NCBI GenBank assembly: GCA_030605385.1
Contig: JAUWIL010000001.1
Location: 1 to 52,575, forward strand
From: Methanobacteriota archaeon
GTDB taxonomy: Archaea > Halobacteriota > Syntropharchaeia > JAUWIL01
Direction of reading: 5' to 3'
Length of the DNA: 52,575 nucleotides
Shown here: positions 2,832 to 41,007 of the stretch, piece by piece
Layout of the letters: every line of letters begins with the position of its first letter
How positions within the stretch are numbered: the stretch's first letter is position 1
Notes under the pieces: generated by a model
What the model was told of the DNA's origin: nothing
Databases searched by the model: none
What the model saw: only the letters and a program-made list of their open reading frames with translations
Position numbers and translations under genes: made by a program

Positions 2832-3314
2832 ATGCCATACACAGTTTTTCTAAGCCATTGCACGAGTCCCGAGGATATGAAATATGTGAATTGGTTCGAT
2901 TCTACACTTAGAAATCAATGTATTGGGTGCTATGTTGCTGAATGGTATCGAGAGCCAAACAACCTTATAACAGACAAAATAAAAAACGCAATTAATGATA
3001 GCCAATGCGCTCTAGTATTATGGACGAAAAAAGGAAGAGGATCCCAATTCGTCAATCAAGAAGTAGGTTATGCTGAAGATAAAAAACTAATAATACCTCT
3101 TGTAGAAAAGGGAGTTCCATTAGGAGGGTTCCTTTATGGAAGGGATTGTATTGAATTTGAAAGAAACAATCCAACAGGAGCATTAAATAGTACCGTTGAA
3201 TATATCAATCAACTTAAGCTTGCCAAAGAGCAACAGGATATGGCAACGGGCATGGTTACTCTTCTCATTAGCCTTTTTACACTCGGAGGTCTACTTGCTG
3301 CAGCATCAAGGTAA
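2832..3314 (+). CDS. TIR-like domain protein with C-terminal transmembrane helix
   Basis: The N-terminus YTVFLSHCTSPED, then SQCALVLWTKKG...FVNQEVGYA...KLIIPLV, matches the TIR/DUF1863 layout (strand-SH start, conserved W/E helix). The last ~25 aa (GMVTLLISLFTLGGLLAAA) are hydrophobic. GGAGGTGA RBS lies 8 nt upstream. Confidence 0.6.
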   Translation: MPYTVFLSHCTSPEDMKYVNWFDSTLRNQCIGCYVAEWYREPNNLITDKIKNAINDSQCALVLWTKKGRGSQFVNQEVGYAEDKKLIIPLVEKGVPLGGFLYGRDCIEFERNNPTGALNSTVEYINQLKLAKEQQDMATGMVTLLISLFTLGGLLAAASR

Positions 3315-3326
3315 GAAACCTTCTTC

Positions 3327-3593
3327 CTAATACTTATTTTTACAGTATTGCTCTATTTGGTTCAACATCCCCTCGCTACCCGCAACGACCTTAATGTCTC
3401 GCAAGTCCTCCACTATCTTTTCAAAGACCTTGCATTTTCCTTTGAGGTGGGCGAGAGGGTGAAGATAAAAATCGACCCGGAGGGAGAAAGACTGATCGTT
3501 GAGAAACGGTACTCGTTTTGTCTCTCTTTTGTCTCTCTGCACTCTATTAAAGATTGTCAGAGGGTGCGACTCAGATAAAGTTAACTTTGTCAT
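3327..3593 (-). CDS. Hypothetical protein, last gene of a four-gene minus-strand operon
   Basis: ATG start with a GAGG RBS. It overlaps the stop of the upstream gene by 23 nt. No recognisable domain. Confidence 0.4.
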   Translation of the reverse strand: MTKLTLSESHPLTIFNRVQRDKRETKRVPFLNDQSFSLRVDFYLHPLAHLKGKCKVFEKIVEDLRDIKVVAGSEGMLNQIEQYCKNKY

Positions 3594-4401
3594 CTTTTAC
3601 CGCCTCTAGTTTATCCTCCCATATGTTATACTGGGTCATGTATTTCTCCCTCCTCTCGGCTAATCTTGTATCTAATTGAGTGGATTGTACGAACTCCTCT
3701 ATTTCGTTTGCCATCCTTCTTATCGTATCTATATCGCTTTTTATTTCCTCGCATTCCCTTATTTCCAATAGTTCTTTCTCGAATCTAGGAAAGATATCTT
3801 TAATGTAAATATGGCTATGTTTTTCCCCCAATATTGATCTTGTTAGTTTTGGGACGCCATCTCTTTTTAACCATTGTTTGCCATCTTTCATTCCAAATTC
3901 CGCTTCAAATTTGGGGATGTATCGTTCAAGTTCCTCGGAAGTCTCTATCCACCCTTCAACTTTTTCTTTGATATCCTTTTCTACTTCTCCTAGGTTAGAG
4001 TTATATTCTCCAACCTGTTTTCGGTATTCTGCTACGTCCTCAACCAGCTCCTTATGTCTTTTAATAAAATCTTTTTCAGCACCCGTATCGCCTTTTAAAC
4101 TCGGCCCCCAATATCTTAAAGAATCTATATTCCCACTCTTTATTTCAGATATAGTTTCCCCATTCATATATAGAGTTCTCATGATGGGGTCTATTATCTT
4201 GGCTATCGCGATTACTACACTGTCTCTTTCTCTGTCTTTACGTAGTTCATCTACCTGCTCACTTACCTTTTTGACACACACCCAAGTTATTATTGCTAAG
4301 AGTGCTGTTGCAACTGCAGTGACTGCTGCTGCGAGATTATTTGTTATTCCCTCTACCGCCATCACTACTATTTCTTCTGCTACCATTACCACTGTTTGCA
4401 A
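3571..4401 (-). CDS. Membrane-anchored helical/coiled-coil protein, unknown function
   Basis: N-terminal hydrophobic helix (AAAVTAVATALLAIITWVCV), followed by about 230 aa rich in E/K with heptad-like character. No known catalytic motif seen. Confidence 0.55.
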   Translation of the reverse strand: MQTVVMVAEEIVVMAVEGITNNLAAAVTAVATALLAIITWVCVKKVSEQVDELRKDRERDSVVIAIAKIIDPIMRTLYMNGETISEIKSGNIDSLRYWGPSLKGDTGAEKDFIKRHKELVEDVAEYRKQVGEYNSNLGEVEKDIKEKVEGWIETSEELERYIPKFEAEFGMKDGKQWLKRDGVPKLTRSILGEKHSHIYIKDIFPRFEKELLEIRECEEIKSDIDTIRRMANEIEEFVQSTQLDTRLAERREKYMTQYNIWEDKLEAVKDDKVNFI

Positions 4402-4461
4402 CCCTCCTATCTATAACAGGAACAGTTGTCAGCCAAATGAAAGGGCTGAACGTCTAAACTC

Positions 4462-4977
4462 CTAGTTCCTCCCTCTCTCTTTTGCAATAGCTTCTTGTAT
4501 CATTCTTTTAACCCTATCTTCATCCTGATTAATATCATCTTCATTGAACCACAGAACCTTCCACCCCCTCTCATTTAGTGCGTTCTCCTTCCCCGCATCT
4601 CTTTCTTTTGCATGCCAGTAGTCAGCGCCAGGCTCTATAGCAACTTTTTCGTTTACAAATGCGAAGTCGATCCAATATCTTGAAACATTGTACTGCTTTT
4701 CGTAATCCTCATGTTCTTTGAAGCACAGTTCGTTTAGATATTGCTCAGTCCTTTTTTCCAAGTCTGTGTCTTTTTTTGATGGCGGCACTACTTCTCGTTC
4801 AAAACGAACTTCATCTACTACAAAATTTAGTTCACAGTCTTGACAAGTTACTATGAAAGGAGGCTTCTGCTTAAGATAAAGGTTAAAGATGTTATAATAT
4901 CTCATACATTTTGGACATTTTGTCCACAGGTTCGTCCCACCGCCTATGTACGCAATACTTTTCATCATCTCTACCAT
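4462..4977 (-). CDS. Zinc-ribbon plus DUF559 (Vsr-like endonuclease fold) protein
   Basis: CPKC...CQDC zinc ribbon at the N-terminus. The C-terminus YWIDFAFVNEKVAIEPGADYWH...RDAGKENALNERGWKVLWFNEDDI matches the DUF559 pattern (Y.vDF...IE.DG..H...D..R...L...G..vlRf). Confidence 0.6.
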   Translation of the reverse strand: MVEMMKSIAYIGGGTNLWTKCPKCMRYYNIFNLYLKQKPPFIVTCQDCELNFVVDEVRFEREVVPPSKKDTDLEKRTEQYLNELCFKEHEDYEKQYNVSRYWIDFAFVNEKVAIEPGADYWHAKERDAGKENALNERGWKVLWFNEDDINQDEDRVKRMIQEAIAKERGRN

Positions 4978-4978
4978 A

Positions 4979-5521
4979 TTACCGCAGCTCCAACAATTCT
5001 ATCCCATATTTTTCCAATGTGGACAGCAACTCTGGATCTCTCTGCTTGCAGATTATCAGCTTCTGTATCTCGTTGACAGGATAGTTTTCTTTAACAAGAA
5101 CTTCGTAACTCAGCACTTGCCCGATTGCTTCGAAATTCAGTTTATCTTTGATTTCCGCTAAAACAATATTCTTATCCTTTATCATGTTAAGGAATCCTCT
5201 TTCAATATCTTCATCAGGAGACTTAGATCTCTTCCTGAATTTCACTATTCTTACATTATAAGAATCAGGAGTTTGAGCGCCAGTTTTTCCTTCAGGAATA
5301 AATATAGCATCAACTCTTTTTATTTCAGTTGACACGGTCTCACTCTCAAACACAGGTTTAACATGTACTTCTGCATAAATAGTTCCCCTAATTTCAGGAT
5401 CTTCTAACATCTTTTTATAATATTTATGCAACAATATGTCTTCTTTCCCCTTTGTCTTATTAGGTGGCCAAGGATCAGTATATGTTCCCATCACCAGGCC
5501 TACTGCTGACTTTTTAGCCAT
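4979..5521 (-). CDS. Putative PD-(D/E)xK nuclease-fold protein
   Basis: ORF 4979..5563. Start set to the ATG at 5521, which has a GGTGAT RBS 6 nt upstream. VDAIFIP ... VLAEIKDK gives a D...E-x-K arrangement. One nt separates its stop from the next gene's start. Confidence 0.45.
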   Translation of the reverse strand: MAKKSAVGLVMGTYTDPWPPNKTKGKEDILLHKYYKKMLEDPEIRGTIYAEVHVKPVFESETVSTEIKRVDAIFIPEGKTGAQTPDSYNVRIVKFRKRSKSPDEDIERGFLNMIKDKNIVLAEIKDKLNFEAIGQVLSYEVLVKENYPVNEIQKLIICKQRDPELLSTLEKYGIELLELR

Positions 5522-5625
5522 GTTCTTATCACCTTGCCATACTAACTTAACTATCAGGTGCAACCAACTTAAATGTACTTCTAGACATTTCTATACGCTT
5601 TCATGCTCCCATCAGAATAACAGCT

Positions 5626-5665
5626 CACGTTATGTTTATGTGTGAGTGATAGCATAAGAATAATG
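5626..5665 (+). promoter_or_regulatory. Copy 2 of the same motif, in the spacer between the minus-strand operon and the PIN gene
   Basis: CACGTTATGTTTATGTGTGAGTGATAGCATAAGAATAATG. The first 23 nt are identical to copy 1. Confidence 0.4.
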
Positions 5666-5822
5666 ATAGCTTTGATCTCAGGAAGATTGAAGTTCAAGCA
5701 TGAAGGTGTGTAAGCAAAATAGATTTCGTATGTCGTACCAAGATGATAGAATATATGGCATTAATGTCTGGTATGCCTAAGTTAGGCGACACACATATAT
5801 GTGAAGTAAACACGTAGGGATT

Positions 5823-6293
5823 ATGATGAAACGGAAGTTTAGAGTATACATAGACACGTCGGTCATCGGGGGATATTTAGACGAGGAGTTTAAAGATGCT
5901 TCAACGATGCTTGTTGGAAGATTTAAGAGAGGGGAGCTTGGAGCAGTAATCTCAGAGATCACCAAACTTGAATTGAAAAAAGCACCCAGCGATGTGCAGG
6001 GTGTGCTTAAAGAAATACCAGAAGAAAATATAGAGTATGTTGAACTAACCGATGAAGCAACAACCTTGGCTAAGGGATACGTATCTGACGGTGTATTGGA
6101 TGAAAACAAAATTGCAGATGCACAGCATATAGCCATCGCTACAGTTCATAATGTAGATCTGATTGTGAGTTGGAATTTTAAACACATAGTCAACATTAAT
6201 AAAATCAGAGGCTTCAATGCGGTAAACTTGAAAATGGGCTATCCACTAATAGATATAAGAAGCCCTCAGGAGGTGATATCCTATGAAGAATAA
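5823..6293 (+). CDS. PIN-domain protein (VapC-like toxin)
   Basis: YIDTSVIGG (first acidic residue), ISEITKLE, ADAQHIAIA and the SWNFKH C-terminal motif follow the PIN-domain spacing. Confidence 0.6.
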   Translation: MMKRKFRVYIDTSVIGGYLDEEFKDASTMLVGRFKRGELGAVISEITKLELKKAPSDVQGVLKEIPEENIEYVELTDEATTLAKGYVSDGVLDENKIADAQHIAIATVHNVDLIVSWNFKHIVNINKIRGFNAVNLKMGYPLIDIRSPQEVISYEE

Positions 6294-6414
6294 AAAATTT
6301 GATGCAGTGAAAATGATGAGGGAGATAAGGGACGAATTAAGTAAAAAATTTATACACATGACTTTTGAAGAGCAGAAAAAGTTCATCAAGAAAAGTCTAG
6401 AGCAGACAGCATAG
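6283..6414 (+). CDS. Small 43-aa protein overlapping the PIN gene stop, possible cognate antitoxin or partner
   Basis: ATG at 6283 overlaps the PIN gene 3' end by 11 nt. MKNKKFDAVKMMREIRDELSKKFIHMTFEEQKKFIKKSLEQTA is helical and charged. Below the ORF-track cutoff. Confidence 0.35.
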   Translation: MKNKKFDAVKMMREIRDELSKKFIHMTFEEQKKFIKKSLEQTA

Positions 6415-6482
6415 GGGGCATACACGTCGCATGAAAGGCACCGGTAGCATATATGGGCATGTGAAGGGCAGGATAATGATTT

Positions 6483-6881
6483 ATGTCACAAAAAGGTTGG
6501 TATTATAATCCCCCCAAGCCAAAGGTTCCTGAGGTAGAAAAAAACAGGATTAAGAGCATTTGTGGTGAGTATATTAGGACTGTTTTAAAACCTAAACATA
6601 TAATCCCCAGCCCCTCACATAAAGAGTATTATCATATTGAAGATATGTTTACAAAATGGTGGCGGAATTACTTTTATTTTTATGCCAAATACCATTATAC
6701 AGATCCAAATGCAATTAAGGAGTTTTTAGATCATGGCTTTGCCAGATTGGAATATGTTAATGAACACAGGTTCAATTTATCGTATATGAGACATACAGGA
6801 CAATGGTGGGAGGTTTTTTCAGAATTATCATTGGAAGAATGCTTAGACACCATCGAAGAAATGCCACATTTTAATCCATAG
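6483..6881 (+). CDS. Hypothetical protein, DUF3024-like
   Basis: Clean 132-aa ORF. The W/Y-rich core and the C-terminal GFARLEY...W.L.YMRHTGQWWEV...L.E.L..IEE resemble DUF3024 as I recall it. Not verified. Confidence 0.4.
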   Translation: MSQKGWYYNPPKPKVPEVEKNRIKSICGEYIRTVLKPKHIIPSPSHKEYYHIEDMFTKWWRNYFYFYAKYHYTDPNAIKEFLDHGFARLEYVNEHRFNLSYMRHTGQWWEVFSELSLEECLDTIEEMPHFNP

Positions 6882-7053
6882 AAAAGGCTAAATAAAGCAT
6901 ACTATTTACATGAAAGCTAACGGACTCGCATAACAGGTGGGCATGCGGTTCGCTGCATTCACCAAAATGCTCGGCTTGATCACATAATGCTCTCCTCTTC
7001 GTATTGAATATTACCGATGTTACAGGCTGTTGTAATAAGTGTAATGTTGGTGA

Positions 7054-7200
7054 ACTATAACGGTTAACCCGTTTAAGCCGGGATCTGGTTTGTATCCGCC
7101 TTATTTTGCTGGTCGTGTGAGGGAGATTGAAGTCTGGGCAGGTGGATGTATTACGCAATTGGCTTCATGGCACTTCTTTGAAAATGATGATTGTACTTAA
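7054..7200 (+). pseudogene. N-terminal fragment of an archaeal-type AAA/STAND ATPase (no start codon, truncated after ~45 aa)
   Basis: The frame reads TITVNPFKPGSGLYPPYFAGRVREIEVW... The NPF.PG....PP.F.GRE.E motif is the usual N-terminus of the archaeal ATPase family. There is no P-loop downstream and the frame stops at 7198-7200. Confidence 0.3.
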
Positions 7201-7277
7201 ACTCATGTTGTTCAATTGGGTTTAATCGAGAAACATTTAAACACAATTATATTCATTATTATAACTGAGGTGATAAA

Positions 7278-7421
7278 ATGGAAAAAAGACAAGTATGTTT
7301 TACCATTGAGGAGGATATAGTGAAAAACATGGAAGAACTAAGGGACAAAACCGGCGTGCCAGTGAGCAAGCAAATTGAGTTAGCTCTGAAAGGATACAAA
7401 ATCGAAAAAGTAGAGCAATAG
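7278..7421 (+). CDS. Ribbon-helix-helix small protein, 47 aa
   Basis: MEKRQVCFTIEEDIVKNMEELRDKTGVPVSKQIELALKGYKIEKVEQ shows the strand-helix-helix pattern. GAGGTGA RBS upstream. Confidence 0.5.
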   Translation: MEKRQVCFTIEEDIVKNMEELRDKTGVPVSKQIELALKGYKIEKVEQ

Positions 7422-7518
7422 TAAATTTCGGAGCATTTTAATGACGTATATTGAATTGAGTTTGGGTATCGTTATTGGTATTATTTTATCTTTAGTAGTG
7501 GATGTCGCCACAATACGC

Positions 7519-7863
7519 CTATATCTTAACCGATATCGTATCTTGATCTTCAAGAAAAACCTCTGCCACTGAATGGTTCGCCAGATCCAGTGCGTCTGCA
7601 ATTGCTTTTGGTATGGTTATCATGTATGAGTTGCCTCTTTTCGAGATTTTCACTTTCTCGTGTTTCTTAGCTTGCAGGAACAGGTAGGCTTTTTCCAGCG
7701 CTCCTGGGCTGAGCAGCTCATACTTGCACTTGGCGCATTTCCAACCACGTACTTTCAATCCTTCCACATCGATCTCGGTGCGCTCACACAGGTTGTTGCA
7801 CTGAGGGCACTTTAATCCCCCCTCTTCAAGATTCTTTAGTTCATCTATTTTTGATTCCGACAT
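7519..7863 (-). CDS. Antitoxin-like protein: YgiT/MqsA-type zinc ribbon fused to an AbrB/SpoVT domain
   Basis: CPQC...CAKC zinc ribbon. The C-terminal VKISKRGNSYMITIPKAIADALDL...VAEVFLEDQDTISVKI is a SpoVT/AbrB swapped-hairpin signature. Confidence 0.6.
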   Translation of the reverse strand: MSESKIDELKNLEEGGLKCPQCNNLCERTEIDVEGLKVRGWKCAKCKYELLSPGALEKAYLFLQAKKHEKVKISKRGNSYMITIPKAIADALDLANHSVAEVFLEDQDTISVKI

Positions 7864-8110
7864 GTTTTATTAACCACACTTCCTCGTCCAGAGAGTATGA
7901 GTAGCTGGGCACGAGCTTGGTGAAGACGATCTGATTCTTCCGATCGATTGCCCGGCCAACCTCTCCCTTCGTCATTCTTGCATCCTCGTAGTCGTATCCA
8001 TCCTCAATTATCTCCTGTAGTTTCCAGGGCGAGATGTCATGCCTCACCATATCTTTCAGCGCGTCTTTGCTGGGAATGCATAGTTTGCTTCTGAAGCGAA
8101 CATCAAACAT
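7841..8110 (-). CDS. Small toxin-like protein (possibly DUF4258/RelE-fold), upstream partner of the AbrB antitoxin
   Basis: Overlaps the antitoxin gene by 23 nt. The ATG at 8110 gives MFDVRF... An in-frame TTG at 8158 would add 16 aa encoded by the family A repeat. Family assignment is tentative. Confidence 0.45.
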   Translation of the reverse strand: MFDVRFRSKLCIPSKDALKDMVRHDISPWKLQEIIEDGYDYEDARMTKGEVGRAIDRKNQIVFTKLVPSYSYSLDEEVWLIKHVGIKNR

Positions 8111-8162
8111 GTCTGAAAACCTTTGGTTTTCATACTGTTGCGGAACTGCGTTCCGCAAACAT
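8105..8162 (+). repeat. Family A double-hairpin unit, solo copy
   Basis: AAACATGT CTGAAAACC TTT GGTTTTCA TACTGTT GCGGAAC TGC GTTCCGC AAACAT. Confidence 0.85.
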
Positions 8163-8317
8163 CTCTGGCTCCTGTATAAACAGTATGTTTAAACACCCTA
8201 TTAAAACTTTTTGTTACCAACGTTGTTTTTATCTTCCTTATACTTCAACCGCTATGTTATTCTTTCTCAAGCAACCTTGCTGTATTATAAAGTACAACTT
8301 TGTAATACAGAGAAAAA

Positions 8318-8669
8318 TCATTTGATTTTTCTCGCTGTTTCCTCGCTTATCTCTTGCTGCTCGCTGGTTGCGCCGGTCTCTATTCTGCGCTCCCTGGCCA
8401 TCCTGATCACGTCATACACGCTCTTGTTCAGCATGACTGCAGCATGTCTAAAACACTGCGTGTTTTATACGGTTGAAAAACTACGTTTTTCAAACACTGC
8501 TGAGAGATATCCTGCCGCGCGCGTATAAGTCCATCACGTACTCTGCAGCCCCCATGTAAAAAAGCTGTCTCATTGTAGTGCTTTTGTCCACGTACATCTC
8601 CCCGGTGCGCAGCTCCACCAGTGGAAGAATGTCCTCCGGTATTCGTAGTGGATATGATACCATGCCCAT
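8318..8669 (-). pseudogene. UPF0175-family (antitoxin-like) gene split by a family A hairpin unit
   Basis: The 5' part, 8669..8490, encodes MGMVSYPLRIPEDILPLVEL...AAEYVMDLYARGRISLSSV and stops inside the repeat. The 3' part, 8443..8318, encodes AAVMLNKSVYDVIRMARERRIE... Joining the two flanks gives an in-frame ...GRISLSSAAVMLNKS... typical of UPF0175. Confidence 0.6.
8444..8497 (+). mobile_element. Family A double-hairpin unit inserted inside a coding sequence
   Basis: CATGT CTAAAACAC TGC GTGTTTTAT ACGGTT GAAAAAC TAC GTTTTTC AAACA, flanked by CA on both sides. Confidence 0.75.
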
Positions 8670-8799
8670 TTACATCACCTCCATCAGTTTATTTTTTGCT
8701 TTTAGATAACTTGACCTGTTTACGTACACCCTGACGTTTTCCAGCGCCGCATACAAAGTATGTGAAGCGCGCAAAGAACGAAACGCCACTTCCATCCAG

Positions 8800-9777
8800 C
8801 TATATCTTATCTATCTCGCGCATCTCGTTATAGTTAATGGCGGCGCCCATGGCGTATATCTCCGCAGATGAATTATCCTCCAGGACTGCGGCAATCATGT
8901 TAATTCCAGTGCACATGGTTATGCCGGCATGCCGTCCACTCACACGTATTCCAAGGTTTTCTTCCTCGCTGATCTTTATGGTGCCGTCGATACCTATACC
9001 TGCCATGTTTTCGATTATGCGCTTTGCATCATCGACTGCTGCGGAAGGTATTTCTCTGTAGTTGGCGAGAATCTTGCCGCTGCCCGTTCTGGCTGCACTT
9101 AGTATTGACGTCATGCCCCTGCTTATGAATATCTCGGTTGGATTCATTGATGTGCCGCTGTATCCTATCAGATCTGTGAATGCGGTTGGGCTGCTGCCAA
9201 GTATCTGTAGCGTGCCCGAGTATTTCATATCTACTGGTATTCCGCTTCTGATCAGCGCGCCGTCCACCGTCATGCTGCATATTGTTGCTATGCCAACCCT
9301 CCCGAAAGGTATGACAATACTGCCCCCAGCTCCTTCTTCCAGTATTTTCACCCGATTGCTCACAGCGTACCCTGCCTGTATAACCTCCTTTATTATGCCA
9401 ACGGCACGGTCAAACAGGCCTTTATCTACTATAAGTACGTCGCCGATCACCATGCCGCCGCCCTCTTCCAGATTGAATACCGTGTTGTAGATGAGTTCCT
9501 CTATCCTTGTTATCGTGAAGCCGAGACGGTCTTCCACAAGAGCGTCCTCAAGTTCTTTCAATCCGAAACTGGTTATGCTTCTGCCGTAGTTCCCGTGTTT
9601 GACGGTAAGCGTAGCACTGTCGAGTGAGGCAAGGTGGTACCTCACAGCGCGTTCGGTCACATCATACCCCCTCTTCATCAGTTCTTCTGCGATAGCCCTG
9701 GCTCCAAGCGGATCAGTGCTGTTACTGAGTATCCGCAGTATCTCTATCAGCATCCGCTCTGTCTTTTTTCTTGCCAT
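8800..9777 (-). CDS. nrpR: NrpR-type nitrogen regulatory repressor (wHTH plus DUF128 domain)
   Basis: The N-terminus ILRILSNSTDPLGARAIAEELMKRGYDVTERAVRYHL is a winged HTH. The remainder matches the DUF128/NRD layout of short Methanosarcina-type NrpR. Confidence 0.7.
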   Translation of the reverse strand: MARKKTERMLIEILRILSNSTDPLGARAIAEELMKRGYDVTERAVRYHLASLDSATLTVKHGNYGRSITSFGLKELEDALVEDRLGFTITRIEELIYNTVFNLEEGGGMVIGDVLIVDKGLFDRAVGIIKEVIQAGYAVSNRVKILEEGAGGSIVIPFGRVGIATICSMTVDGALIRSGIPVDMKYSGTLQILGSSPTAFTDLIGYSGTSMNPTEIFISRGMTSILSAARTGSGKILANYREIPSAAVDDAKRIIENMAGIGIDGTIKISEEENLGIRVSGRHAGITMCTGINMIAAVLEDNSSAEIYAMGAAINYNEMREIDKI

Positions 9778-9840
9778 AGCACCAATACTCCAACTGGGGT
9801 GTCATTCTGTATCTATTTTTCTGCACGTATTTGCACACTG

Positions 9841-9895
9841 CTTGCGGAGCAAAGCTCCGCAACCGTATAAAACACGCAGTGTTTTATACATGTAT
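9841..9895 (-). repeat. Family A double-hairpin unit, solo copy in inverted orientation
   Basis: The reverse complement reads ACATGT ATAAAACAC TGC GTGTTTTAT ACGGTT GCGGAGC TTT GCTCCGC AAG. Confidence 0.8.
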
Positions 9896-9934
9896 CTGGC
9901 AAACGTGAGATATTTCACCCACATATCGAATAGT

Positions 9935-10729
9935 TCAGCCCACGCAGTATATGATATTTGATATTTCTGCCAGCTTATCGGCGGGTATCTGTTCTGCACG
10001 CAGTTTAAGATAGTCCTCAGGTATATCATCAAGCGCTTTTGTTATATCTAACTGGGGCAGCATATGACCCGTCTTAAGAAGCGCCTTTCGCAGGGTCTTG
10101 CGGCGCTGTGTGAATATCGCAGTTATAAAATCCATGAAAAAATCCTCATTCCTGACGCTGTACGGCGGCTTGCGCGGTTTTAGTTCAACCACGGCAGACG
10201 TTACCTCTGGCATCGGATAAAAAGCGCTCCGCGGCACTACCTCAAGTATTCTTGGCGTCGTATAGTAGTTCACGGCTATTGACAATCTGCCGTAGTTCTT
10301 TGAGCCAAATTCTGCGGTCATGCGCCTGGCAAACTCGTACTGGTACATCAGAACTGCCAGCCTGAAGCCCAGCCCGATTAGCCTGAATGTAATCCTGGAC
10401 GATATGGAATACGGCAGGTTTGAAACTGCTTTATCCACCTCAGGCAGATCTATTTTCATCGCGTCGGCATGTATTAACTCAATATTATCTCTACCACGGT
10501 ACTTGTTTTCCAGTTCTCCGAACAAATCCTTATCCACTTCTATCGCTATGACTCTTCCAGCCTTCTCAACCAGCTTATCTGTCAGGTTTCCATAACCTGG
10601 TCCTATTTCGAGTATGGTCTCTTCACTGCCTATACCAGCATACTCCACGATGCGCTCTATTACCCGCTCGTCTCTGAGAAAATGCTGACCTCTACTGCGC
10701 CTGCGCATGATACCACTGCCACCGGTCAT
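9935..10729 (-). CDS. ksgA: 16S rRNA (adenine1518/1519-N6)-dimethyltransferase KsgA/Dim1
   Basis: GQHFL, the SAM motif ILEIGPGYGNLT, and NLPYSISS. Confidence 0.9.
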   Translation of the reverse strand: MTGGSGIMRRRSRGQHFLRDERVIERIVEYAGIGSEETILEIGPGYGNLTDKLVEKAGRVIAIEVDKDLFGELENKYRGRDNIELIHADAMKIDLPEVDKAVSNLPYSISSRITFRLIGLGFRLAVLMYQYEFARRMTAEFGSKNYGRLSIAVNYYTTPRILEVVPRSAFYPMPEVTSAVVELKPRKPPYSVRNEDFFMDFITAIFTQRRKTLRKALLKTGHMLPQLDITKALDDIPEDYLKLRAEQIPADKLAEISNIIYCVG

Positions 10730-10744
10730 ATTTTTTATTTGCCT

Positions 10745-10869
10745 GTCGAACTTTCAGTTCGACTGTCTTGCGAAAGATCTGATTTCGCAAAGTCTTGCAA
10801 AACATAGTTTTGCGGGATATCTGAAGGCTCTGCCTTCAGAGATATCTTGCAGAACGAAGTTTCGCGGGA
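10745..10869 (+). repeat. Family B hairpin array (5 hairpins of 19-27 nt)
   Basis: GTCGAACT/AGTTCGAC. Then TCTTGCGAAA..TTTCGCAAAG, TCTTGCAAAAC..GTTTTGCGGGA, TATCTGAAGG..CCTTCAGAGATA and TCTTGCAGAAC..GTTTCGCGGGA. Confidence 0.85.
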
Positions 10870-10963
10870 CATCGTCATCCGCCCGGAATCCAGATGTTTC
10901 AGATAAAATGATATTATGAGAAAAGCTGTAGTTATTATCTTTGGTGAATGGTTTGGGAGCTTT

Positions 10964-13705: not shown

Positions 13706-14404
13706 TCAAATCTCCACCTTCAGATCCTGCGAAACGGAGTTTCGCGGGACAGGCGAAAGCTTTGCTTTCGACAAGGTCCTGCGAATGTCAAGCTCGTTAT
13801 GTACTACTATCATGCAGTGGTCCACATGCAGTGATTTTTGTCCGACGCTTACATTTCTTGCACAGGCATCTGCAAGGAGCCGCTCATATTCTTCACCAAG
13901 TCCCATATGGTCGCCAAGCACGAAAATCAGTTTATCACCCATCTCAATTTCTCTTATCCACTCGCCTGTTTCAACAAGATATATTATATCTGTGCCGTCA
14001 CCGCACCCTTCCAGCACATCCTTCATGTCCCCTTTACGTATGTATACGCCAGGAGTTGACAATATTTCATGCTCGGTGATGTTCTGCCTTCCAAGCGCCT
14101 TGCTTATCAGCGAGGCTGCGCTTCTTTCATCCGGGCTGAGATATCTCAGCTCACTGCCTTCAAAGCGTATCAGGATCGGGGGATTTGGCTCTCCGAGCAG
14201 CAGAAGCCAGAGTCTTGTATCTCTCCGTATATCGTGCGACAGAAAGAACGCTGAATTGACGCACCTGCATACTATATCCATCCTGCCGGCTGAACCTGGG
14301 AGGTCTTTCAGGCTGAAACCGCCGGTCGTAGTAGCTGTGCTGCTAACCACCAGAAATTCCCTTCTAACGCCCTCTCCCCTAACACCCATGTTGATCTCAC
14401 TCAC
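13706..14404 (-). CDS. trmY: tRNA (pseudouridine54-N1)-methyltransferase TrmY (SPOUT)
   Basis: GRMDIVCRCVNSAFFLSHDIRRD...LSPDERSAASLI matches TrmY/DUF358. The last ~28 codons are encoded by family B repeat sequence. Confidence 0.7.
   Translation of the reverse strand: MSEINMGVRGEGVRREFLVVSSTATTTGGFSLKDLPGSAGRMDIVCRCVNSAFFLSHDIRRDTRLWLLLLGEPNPPILIRFEGSELRYLSPDERSAASLISKALGRQNITEHEILSTPGVYIRKGDMKDVLEGCGDGTDIIYLVETGEWIREIEMGDKLIFVLGDHMGLGEEYERLLADACARNVSVGQKSLHVDHCMIVVHNELDIRRTLSKAKLSPVPRNSVSQDLKVEI
13725..13790 (+). repeat. Family B hairpin array (2 to 3 hairpins) overlapping the trmY 3' end
   Basis: TCCTGCGAAAC GGA GTTTCGCGGGA, then CAGGCGAAAGC TTT GCTTTCGACAAG, then a truncated GTCCTGCGAA. 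Confidence 0.8.
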
Positions 14405-30495: not shown

Positions 30496-30651
30496 TCTCC
30501 AACAATCTATAAAAAACGCATTCGAAGTAAGTAGGTGCCTCAGAACTCATAGGGTCTGTCATCACCCTTTAAGGGGCTCAGCTATTATCTTCTTCATCAT
30601 CGGCACCTGTAGAAATATCGGGAGTCAAGTGCCTTAATAGTTCTTACCACA

Positions 30652-30767
30652 TCTTGCGAAGCACAGCTTCGCGGGATATCTGAAGGGTGCGCCTTCAGAA
30701 ATATCTTGCGAAATCGGAGATTTCGCGAGACAACCGAATACGAAGTATTCGTTAAGTCTTGCGGGGG
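30652..30767 (+). repeat. Family B hairpin array (4 hairpins plus a truncated fifth), abutting the pyrF stop
   Basis: TCTTGCGAAGC..GCTTCGCGGGA, TATCTGAAGG..CCTTCAGAAATA, TCTTGCGAAATC..GATTTCGCGAGA, CAACCGAATAC..GTATTCGTTAAG, then TCTTGCGGGGG. Confidence 0.85.
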
Positions 30768-31427: not shown

Positions 31428-31460
31428 TTTCCTTCCTCATCTAATTCATATTTTTTACAT

Positions 31461-31838
31461 GTATGAAATGCGAAGCATGTCCGAAAACCTTAGGTTTTCG
31501 TACTGTTGCGGAACTTCGTTCCGCAAACATGTCTGGAAGCGAAGCTTCCATACGGTTACAGAGCTCCGCTCTGTAAACATGTTTAAAAATCTTTGATTTT
31601 TAAACGGTTGAAAAACTACGTTTTTCAAACATGTCTAAAAGTGGAACTTTTAGACTGTTATGGAACTTTGTTCCATAAACATGTCCGAAAACCTTAGGTT
31701 TTCGTACTGTTGCGGAACTGCGTTCTGTAAACATGTATGAAAAGCTCTGCGTTTCATACGGTTATGGAGCTGTGCTCCATAAACATGTTTAAAAATCTTT
31801 GATTTTTAAACGGTTGCAAAACTACGTTTTGCAAACAT
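31461..31838 (+). repeat. Family A double-hairpin array: one truncated plus seven complete 50-52 nt units
   Basis: Units start at 31476, 31528, 31578, 31630, 31680, 31732 and 31784. Every junction reads AAACATGT. Confidence 0.9.
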
Positions 31839-39967: not shown

Positions 39968-39995
39968 AATATGGGTGTAGCAATATGGGTGTAGC
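39968..39995. repeat. Perfect tandem duplication, 2 x 14 nt (AATATGGGTGTAGC) covering the cofE start codon
   Basis: Read directly. Confidence 0.9.
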
Positions 39996-40743
39996 CGAGA
40001 TTCGCTTATTTGCTCCTGAGGAAGTCCCTCTGATAAAAGAGGGGGACGACATAGTCGATATCATACTCGACGCAGTGGAACTCAAGAGTCATGATATAGT
40101 AGTAATTGCATCAACCATAATGTCCAAGTCTGAGGGTAGAGCTATTTCCCTCGATAGTATCAGACCGTGCGCCAGAGCGGTTGAGCTTGCATCGAACCTG
40201 AACGAAGACCCGAGATTCATGGAGCTTGTTCTGCAGAACAGCCGCAGAATAATAGTCGAGCGCCCCATACTTCTGACCGAAATGCCGAACGGGTACATAT
40301 GCATCAAGGCAGGTATAGACAGGTCCAACGTCAAGGATGGTAAGGCACTACTGCTCCCCGCTGACCCTGATAAGAGCGCGAAAGGTATACACGACCGGAT
40401 TCTCGAGCGCACCGGAAAGAGGGTGAGCATAATAATATCAGACACATCAGGCAGAGCCTTCCGCATGGGTCAGACCGCAGTAGCCGTAGGGTGTGCGGGC
40501 ATTGGTCCGCTGCTGAACTGGGTCGGAATGAAGGACCTTTACGGGCACGAGCTTGAAATAACAGAGGAAGCCGTGGCTGATGAACTTGCAGGCGCATCAA
40601 ACCTGCTCACAGGCGAGGGCAACGGCGGTAAACCCATAGTAGTGGTGCGCGGATTAGACCTGTACTCGGATTCACATGGTGTTGCGGCACTACACCGCAA
40701 AGACGAGGATGATGTAATAAAGAGGGCTTTGCTGCATGTTTAA
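39985..40743 (+). CDS. cofE: Coenzyme F420-0:L-glutamate ligase
   Basis: IKEGDDIVDII..., IKAGIDRSN, IISDTSGRAFRMGQTAVAVG. The stop codon lies inside the first family A repeat unit. Confidence 0.85.
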   Translation: MGVAEIRLFAPEEVPLIKEGDDIVDIILDAVELKSHDIVVIASTIMSKSEGRAISLDSIRPCARAVELASNLNEDPRFMELVLQNSRRIIVERPILLTEMPNGYICIKAGIDRSNVKDGKALLLPADPDKSAKGIHDRILERTGKRVSIIISDTSGRAFRMGQTAVAVGCAGIGPLLNWVGMKDLYGHELEITEEAVADELAGASNLLTGEGNGGKPIVVVRGLDLYSDSHGVAALHRKDEDDVIKRALLHV

Positions 40744-40966
40744 AACGCAAGGCATTTTAGACGGTTGTGAAATCTCTGATTTCACAAACATGTCTGAAAA
40801 AGCAACGCTTTTTCATACGGTTACAGAATCTTCGATTCTGCAAACATGTTTAAAATGCAAGGCATGTTCGAAAACCTTAGGTTTTCGTACTGTTGTAGAA
40901 CGTAGTTCTACAAACATGCCTAAAACACTACGTGTTTTATGCTGTTGCAAAACGTAGTTTTGCAAA
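40735..40966 (+). repeat. Family A double-hairpin array: four complete units and one truncated unit
   Basis: Units start at 40735, 40789, 40845 (18-nt stub), 40863 and 40915. Confidence 0.9.
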
Positions 40967-41007
40967 CAGGAGAAAAGATGAAGTAAAAAAAAGTGGTGAT
41001 AATATTC

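Follow-up and report, generated by a model that had tools for sequence, protein, structure and literature searches.

How did a 52-nt palindromic repeat come to lie within a small archaeal gene, and what does its position say about the spread of the repeat? The question is raised by contig JAUWIL010000001.1 of an uncultured archaeon (assembly GCA_030605385.1), of which a stretch of 52,575 nt, referred to as the window, was analysed. On the minus strand of the window, a UPF0175-type gene is split by one unit of a repeat that is here named family A. A protein family match that spans the junction, the homologues and the uninterrupted DNA of a relative identify the unit as an insertion into a formerly intact gene of about 99 codons, as the original prediction had claimed. 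The unit occupies positions 8445-8496 (+), according to exact location of the string TGTCTAAAAC...TTCAAACA, with hairpin a at approximately 8446-8470 and hairpin b at approximately 8471-8495 (exact string, covariance model and DNA fold). The string had been recognized correctly before, but its position had been given as 8446-8497, off by one. The earlier description of CA on both sides of the insert was slightly inexact. The left CA (8443-8444, +) either is the target sequence or stems from a 2-bp duplication as one of its copies, the second CA is the unit's own end (8495-8496), and to the right of the unit follows CT. With CA both in front of the unit and at its end, removal of 8443-8494, 8444-8495 or 8445-8496 results in the same repaired open reading frame (ORF).

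The 5' part of the gene (8497-8669, minus strand) contains the start codon, codons 1-57 and two bases of codon 58. The start at 8669 is preceded by GGAGGTGAT, with a GGAGG Shine-Dalgarno-like motif just upstream. The ORF 8669-8490 (-) encodes MGMVSYPL...ARGRISLSS and ends, as predicted, two codons into the repeat with a V codon and a TGA, both inside the unit, as is the base that now completes codon 58; this present 5' part is called as a 59-aa ORF (8490-8669, product P0001). The 3' part (8318-8444, minus strand) carries the gene on from the last base of codon 58 through codons 59-99 to the stop. Past the unit, the frame resumes one base shifted (AAVMLNKSVYDVIRMARERRIETGATSEQQEISEETARKIK, AAVMLNKS...) and closes with the stop at 8318. 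Since the insert has 52 nt and 52 mod 3 is 1, the gene halves are in different frames, the 3' part being +1 out of frame while the unit is present, and are joined by excision only. In silico removal of 8445-8496 created a single ORF of 99 aa (...GRISLSS/AAVMLNKS...) with the junction sequence GGCAGGATATCTCTCAGCAGTGCTGCAGTCATGCTGAAC, in agreement with the prediction. The insertion point lies between the second and third bases of codon 58, at the centre of the 11-bp near-palindrome CAGCA-C-TGCTG.

The repaired protein matches PF03683 (UPF0175) in a profile search with E=4.8e-5 and 23.4 bits over residues 43-85, a score below the curated Pfam gathering cut-off of 27.9 bits for this family. UPF0175 was the sole Pfam family matched, and the match spans the junction at residues 58/59. 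Neither fragment alone matched Pfam. An exhaustive search in 1.84 billion representative proteins yielded 93 homologues at E<=1e-3, 23 of them at E<=1e-10 and the best at 7e-20. Most of the 93 have about 100 aa and align in one stretch with equal query and subject coordinates. A word-indexed protein search found three intact relatives of 99-104 aa with 61, 52 and 45% identity, ungapped around the junction, and the C-terminal halves of intact homologues align with the 3' part of the split gene. Aligned together, the repaired protein and 27 relatives show no gap from the YPLRIP motif to beyond GAT, junction included. The junction falls into the best-conserved block (consensus GRISxGRAAELL), in which G52 is present in at least 90% and L63 in all of the 28 aligned sequences; 23 of the 28 match PF03683, with a best E of 6.8e-9. 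The anticipated UPF0175 core at the junction is thus borne out by the ungapped alignment and these family matches. Intact orthologues free of the insert, for which a search had been proposed, exist as single proteins of about 100 aa, and in none of these relatives were the two halves separate conserved ORFs. The closest, P0002 (61% identity), has continuous DNA at the site (...ATCTCTCTCAGCAGGGCAGCC...). The comparisons place the repaired protein as a genuine member of a UPF0175-type family of about 100 aa, a putative antitoxin. Four metagenomic homologues (P0069, P0065, P0054 and P0109) diverge right after the GRIS(L/V)S motif, near the insertion position. Frameshifts, sequencing errors or other insertions near the same spot could account for this.

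A unit inside a formerly intact gene is good evidence of past mobility of the family. In this respect the original prediction, which took the split gene as direct evidence of mobility, stands for a past event. The insertion is also present in two contigs of the European Nucleotide Archive (ENA), independent assemblies with 99.9% and 99.8% identity to the window. One of them (L005) reads through the whole insertion with identical junctions, and the other (L004) starts at the unit. An assembly artefact of the present contig is excluded by the same insertion in other ENA assemblies. Repeat-induced misassembly is scarcely credible as the reason for a unit in this gene: contigs of this population often break at repeats (L004 at the unit, a further contig, L006, with an array at its end), but the flanks make up a single gene, its halves lying in order on one strand, and L005 comes from a different ENA assembly. 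With no intact orthologue nearer than 61% identity in the collections searched, the insertion is dated only as younger than that lineage split. Neither half contains further stops, which fits a fairly recent insertion. As read from the frames, the frameshift and the stop two codons on make the gene a pseudogene, or leave at most a 59-aa N-terminal fragment. The disruption of a dispensable gene by a miniature repeat is an event of known kind.

Dispensability is suggested by the surroundings of the gene. UPF0175 genes are reported exclusively beside COG2405/DUF3368 PIN-like genes, with which they form putative toxin-antitoxin pairs (PMC5499597). In the relative L001, an upstream gene of 169 aa and the UPF0175 gene share 4 nt, and for the former a precomputed PF11848 (DUF3368) match is recorded; scans with the current Pfam and NCBIfam did not reproduce the label. 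In the window, an ORF of 41 codons (8670-8795, minus strand) is all that occupies the 130 nt from the UPF0175 start to the nrpR stop. It abuts the nrpR stop, and a stop codon immediately upstream closes its frame. The end of this ORF is similar to the C-terminus of the L001 upstream gene (BLASTP, E=1e-4) in the same relative position, and by this similarity the ORF is probably the C-terminal remnant of a COG2405/DUF3368-type PIN-like toxin gene. The locus resembles the known pairs (PMC5499597) in that the repaired product aligns to UPF0175 and the presumed partner gene of L001 overlaps, and differs from them by a partner located upstream rather than downstream, which is reduced to a remnant in the window. 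The presumed toxin gene was probably cut to about 40 codons, and so largely deleted, before the insertion; the orphan antitoxin gene was then probably dispensable when struck, and its disruption probably tolerated.

The inserted unit belongs to a family with 14 full units at five loci of the window, found by pattern scanning and with a covariance model derived from 17 units. The 8445 unit scored 71.6 bits against this model (E=2.5e-14). A solo unit at 8110-8161 (+) reached 76.3 bits, and another one is located at 9839-9890 (-) in the ksgA-nrpR spacer. A head-to-tail array at 31459-31837 (+), between pyrF and a deoxyhypusine synthase gene, consists of seven units (31478-31837) with an 18-nt partial unit ahead. 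The second array (40737-40968, +), at the 3' end of cofE, has four units and an 18-nt partial at 40847. Units have the form T-[GT..hairpin a..AC]-N-[GTT..hairpin b..AAC]-A, with a hairpin period of 26 nt and a unit length of 52 nt. Feet, A/T tracts and the linkers AAACA/TGT and ACNGTT are conserved, whereas inner stem and loop are variable. In this structure 95.5% of the cells are paired, compared to 80% in shuffles and 29-49% with slid partners. Changes on both sides occur in 13 of 20 pairs, and G-U in just 3 of 333 cells. The scarcity of wobble pairs argues for a pairing maintained in DNA, as single-stranded hairpins or cruciforms, and not in RNA. Folded as DNA, the 8445 unit forms two hairpins with -12.2 kcal/mol (z=-5.1).

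Identical stem variants recur across the arrays and in another genome, and halves a and b are variously combined. The 8445 unit shares its half a with the 9839 unit and its half b with a unit at 31580: its left 33 nt equal 9860-9892 at 97% identity, its right 34 nt equal 31598-31631, also at 97%. A 33-nt inverted repeat (97%) pairs 8443-8475 with 9860-9892, that is, two solo units in opposite orientation, and brackets nrpR, the toxin-gene remnant and the UPF0175 5' half (1.4 kb). It could serve as substrate for an inversion; the present gene order shows none. Behind both 18-nt partial units (TGTWTRAAATGCRAGGCA), at 31459-31476 and 40847-40864, comes one and the same unit subtype (TGTYCGAAAACCTTAGGTTTTCGTACTGTTG...). 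The resulting 70-nt composites are 85% identical and represent either a longer variant element or a unit inserted after GCA within another. The remainder of an interrupted unit was not found downstream of the partials.

Common features of the insertion sites are restricted to one side. The left flank reads RCA at all five loci (AACA, AGCA, TACA, TACA and TGCA), always in the same orientation. Every family A unit ends in RCA as well, and the right flanks are without consensus. By chance, an extra CA beyond the array period would be expected at five of five loci with a probability of about (1/16)^5. Within the arrays, the 11 units all run head to tail, most of them differing in sequence. Four of the five loci are outside coding sequence, in a window covered to about 83% by ORFs, and two of these four touch gene ends. 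The 8110 unit separates a GGAG Shine-Dalgarno-like motif from the TG of the start codon (ATG) of the gene 7841-8110 (-), and its left flank CAAACA equals a unit's 3' end. Excision of this unit restores tacaGGAGccagagATGTTTGATG, i.e. GGAG-N6-ATG, for an 89-aa ORF (MFDVRFRSK...). Gene callers extend this ORF from a TTG at 8158 to a product of 105 aa, the first 16 residues of which are translated repeat. The other array, at 40737, begins 7 nt ahead of the stop of cofE (39985-40743, +; F420-0:gamma-glutamyl ligase). The last two codons of cofE and its TAA are supplied by the first unit, and removal of the array would change the C-terminus to ...ALLQEKR*. These site patterns fit a mobile element that inserts beside a short oriented target and is purged from essential sequence.

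The best overall explanation couples the insertion event with mobilisation by a hairpin-specific enzyme; taken jointly, the two are probable, with considerable room for doubt. The second component, in which a minimal non-autonomous element is mobilised in trans and the enzyme acts on single-stranded DNA hairpins, is by itself a tentative proposal, held at a little less than even confidence. The mover would be modelled on a Y1 HUH transposase of the IS200/IS605 or of the repetitive extragenic palindrome (REP)-associated type, as has been proposed for bacterial REPs and for the haloarchaeal palindrome-associated transposable elements (PATEs). Such an enzyme would place the unit 3' of a short RCA target, best matched by AAACA, without duplicating it. 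The unit's own RCA end would recreate the target for the next insertion, and head-to-tail arrays of non-identical units would be explained by this re-creation. Seamless excision is predicted, which would restore the gene.

Several observations weigh against this explanation. No transposase of the Y1, TnpB or DDE family was present among the approximately 27 window ORFs scanned. Hairpins reach within 1-2 nt of both unit ends and leave no room for the 5' leader and the guide sequences that IS200/IS605 ends and PATEs possess. The REP hallmark, a GT[AG]G foot, is absent. The CA...CA arrangement is equally compatible with a 2-bp target duplication, and the unit ends are weakly inverted-repeat-like (TGTYTR...). 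The target rule is derived from five independent loci with 3 conserved nucleotides. An empty site in a close relative was not found in the word-indexed and exhaustive protein searches, the nearest intact homologue being the one with 61% identity.

The closest precedent is found in Haloquadratum walsbyi, in which IS605-type transposons decay to 52-bp PATEs that retain only the termini and show strain-specific insertions (PMC3119063). The 52-bp PATEs include core-deletion forms of ISHwa23 and HqIRS46. Their 5' target of 4-5 nt, TCTAC, resembles the 3' end of the element, TTCAC, and is not duplicated (PMC3119063). Family A shares with the PATEs a Halobacteriota host, the length of 52 bp, which is too short for coding, near-terminal palindromes in place of long inverted repeats and the occurrence as insertions. 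In both, a short conserved oligonucleotide of the 5' flank resembles the element's 3' end (TCTAC and ...TTCAC there, RCA and ...RCA here), and a clear target duplication is missing, although CA may here also be read as a 2-bp duplication. The Haloquadratum 52-mers, in contrast, consist of one GC-rich palindrome with a 5' leader of about 20 nt, whereas family A has two AT-rich hairpins that extend to the ends, variable compensated stems and head-to-tail arrays. Also unlike the PATEs, no parent IS605-type transposon, TnpA or TnpB is known for family A.

Family A also resembles bacterial REPs, which are grouped with bacterial interspersed mosaic elements (BIMEs) and REP doublets forming hairpins (REPINs) and are mobilised by REP-associated tyrosine transposases (RAYTs, TnpA-REP) of the Y1 HUH type (PMC3116915, PMC6006769). 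Common to the two are conserved feet and compensated stems in short extragenic palindromes, which are present as solo copies and clusters, in several subfamilies per genome, occasionally inside genes and with pairing at the DNA level. A second repeat, family B, was observed in the window as distinct abutting hairpins of about 26 nt in three intergenic spacers (10745-10871, 13724-13790 and 30651-30760). It has the form CTTGC-stem-loop-stem-GCGGGAYAT alternating with ATATCTGAAGG...CCTTCAGAGATAT; compared to family A, its architecture is the same, its feet and linkers are different. Families A and B together might constitute an archaeal counterpart of REPs and BIMEs, a set of modular 26-nt single-stranded DNA hairpins served by a domesticated or novel hairpin-specific enzyme. 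Insertion would then occur 3' of the end of the system's own product, arrays would grow by self-targeting, and hairpin modules would be shuffled between units. This broader reading is regarded as unlikely. REPs carry a GT[AG]G 5' foot, whereas the feet of family A are GT...AC and GTT...AAC: hairpin a begins with GTC, GTT or GTA, hairpin b with GTTG or GTTA, and GTAG or GTGG occurs in no unit. REPs typically form inverted pairs, in contrast to the exclusively direct, head-to-tail arrays of family A. REP-associated TnpA classes have been reported from bacterial phyla only, according to one survey. A RAYT gene was not among the window ORFs scanned.

A classical MITE, a miniature transposable element with inverted repeats, would require a DDE transposase that binds, as double-stranded DNA, short and imperfect inverted repeats at the termini (5'-TGTYTRAAAA and, in reverse complement, the 3' end TGTTTGNRRAAC) and duplicates CA. 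A CA at either side of the 50-nt core in each of the five loci agrees with it, as does the left end, which matches the right end, read in reverse complement, at about 9 of 12 positions. MITEs are described as widespread in archaea in one source (PMC11602168). Nevertheless, a symmetric transposase acting on the non-palindromic CA should yield both orientations, but CA and never TG was found at the five loci in unit orientation, and 11 of 11 array units point the same way, head to tail. Two similar palindromic hairpins give rise to the inverted-repeat likeness by themselves, and the strict Watson-Crick compensation of the stems is needless for a double-stranded inverted-repeat element. A DDE transposase was not seen among the window ORFs scanned. 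This origin is rated as rather improbable. Classical MITEs resemble family A as small, non-autonomous and mostly intergenic repeats that are at times found within genes, and are set apart by defined terminal inverted repeats related to a parent insertion sequence and by target duplications of fixed length. The same general likeness applies to the palindromic elements of Rickettsia. These are small repeats inserted in frame within ORFs and translated. The family A insertion, on the contrary, shifts the frame and truncates the gene. Family A corresponds in full to none of the three types, PATE, REP or MITE.

Less probable still is that the host itself copied the unit into the gene, for instance through template switching, microhomology-mediated repair or gene conversion from another copy. 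The position of the target in the centre of the near-palindrome is in favour of it, and the mosaic appearance of the unit (half a as in the unit at about 9839, half b as in that at about 31580) suggests recombination between copies. At 8110, flank and unit end share 6-7 nt of homology; at 8445, however, the microhomology is just 2 nt. Host copying would also have to account for a complete unit with the exact family boundaries, target bases unchanged beyond the CA ambiguity, and the same RCA boundaries at all loci.

The gene might still be functional if the 52 nt were removed or skipped in RNA, through a bulge-helix-bulge intron or translational bypassing. Exact excision restores the frame, both halves are devoid of further stops, and the exon flanks CAGCA/UGCUG can pair, thereby closing the two hairpins in RNA. 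This flank pairing is specific to the 8445 site, and the other units stand in unrelated contexts. The in-frame take-off and landing codons do not match, the near-absence of G-U pairs argues against selection at the RNA level, and the partner gene appears to be already destroyed. A functional gene is accordingly considered highly improbable. The bulge-helix-bulge intron, defined by two 3-nt bulges separated by 4 bp at the exon-intron junctions, was rejected: the predicted RNA fold of 8425-8520 is a 5-bp flank helix that closes two hairpins and lacks this motif (z=-1.46).

Outside the window, family A is rare. A strict two-linker pattern applied to 185,579 species genomes detected one true locus, the array at the end of L006, which belongs to a metagenome-assembled genome (MAG) labelled Methanophagales. 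Three matches in JGI metagenome contigs and one in IMG/VR viral contigs were all chance on inspection. One chance match of the pattern scan, at 1130-1300 of the AT-rich metagenome contig L007, comprises several copies of a repeated hairpin of its own (TTCGGATTATATAATCCGAA), unrelated to family A. Concatenated spurious ORFs, obtained by translation of the array, had no match as a protein query. No units were present on the contigs of the nearest GatD relatives (L011, L012) or of the relative with the intact homologue (L001-L003). The window GatD is at most 67% identical to those of other lineages in the collection; named matches come from Methanoperedens, Methanosarcinales, Syntropharchaeia and Halobacteriota MAGs. 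The host is probably close to the Methanophagales-labelled MAG, and family A appears confined to one uncultured Halobacteriota lineage. Rfam gave 0 matches in the whole window at gathering thresholds. A CRISPR array, with its identical repeats and unique, similarly long spacers, was rejected on account of hairpins that abut at a 26-nt period, the lack of spacers, the variable stems and the missing Rfam match. As far as the searched literature shows, family A is undescribed, with the PATEs as closest precedent.

The split gene lies at the border of an islet of defence and toxin-antitoxin-type genes (2832-8669) within housekeeping DNA. The islet includes genes for a TIR-domain protein (2832-3314), a DUF559/REase-like protein (4462-4977), a PIN protein (5823-6293), a DUF3024 protein (6483-6881), an RHH protein (7278-7421) and a zinc-ribbon plus AbrB/MazE-like protein (7519-7863). 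The surrounding housekeeping genes are ksgA, nrpR, pus10, gatD, pyrF, cofE and apgM. A scan for bacterial-type terminators and promoters over 7800-10000 was uninformative.

For the annotation of this genome, the repeat matters in that gene callers are misled by it, as seen in the split gene with its 59-aa and 38-aa fragments, in the 105-aa ORF and at the C-terminus of cofE. For the family itself, a complete unit in the conserved core of a gene is the cleanest proof of spread by insertion that sequence alone can offer, and it rules out that the family consists merely of conserved intergenic signals. If the units are moved by hairpin transposition, they would offer a tractable case for the mobilisation of single-stranded DNA elements of about 50 nt in archaea and a marker for strain typing, and the contig breaks at arrays would be explained. 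If families A and B are indeed a counterpart of the REPs, gene disruptions could become reversible through seamless excision, and with these repeats a REP-like replicator system would for the first time be described in Archaea, from a lineage with kinship to anaerobic methane or alkane oxidisers.

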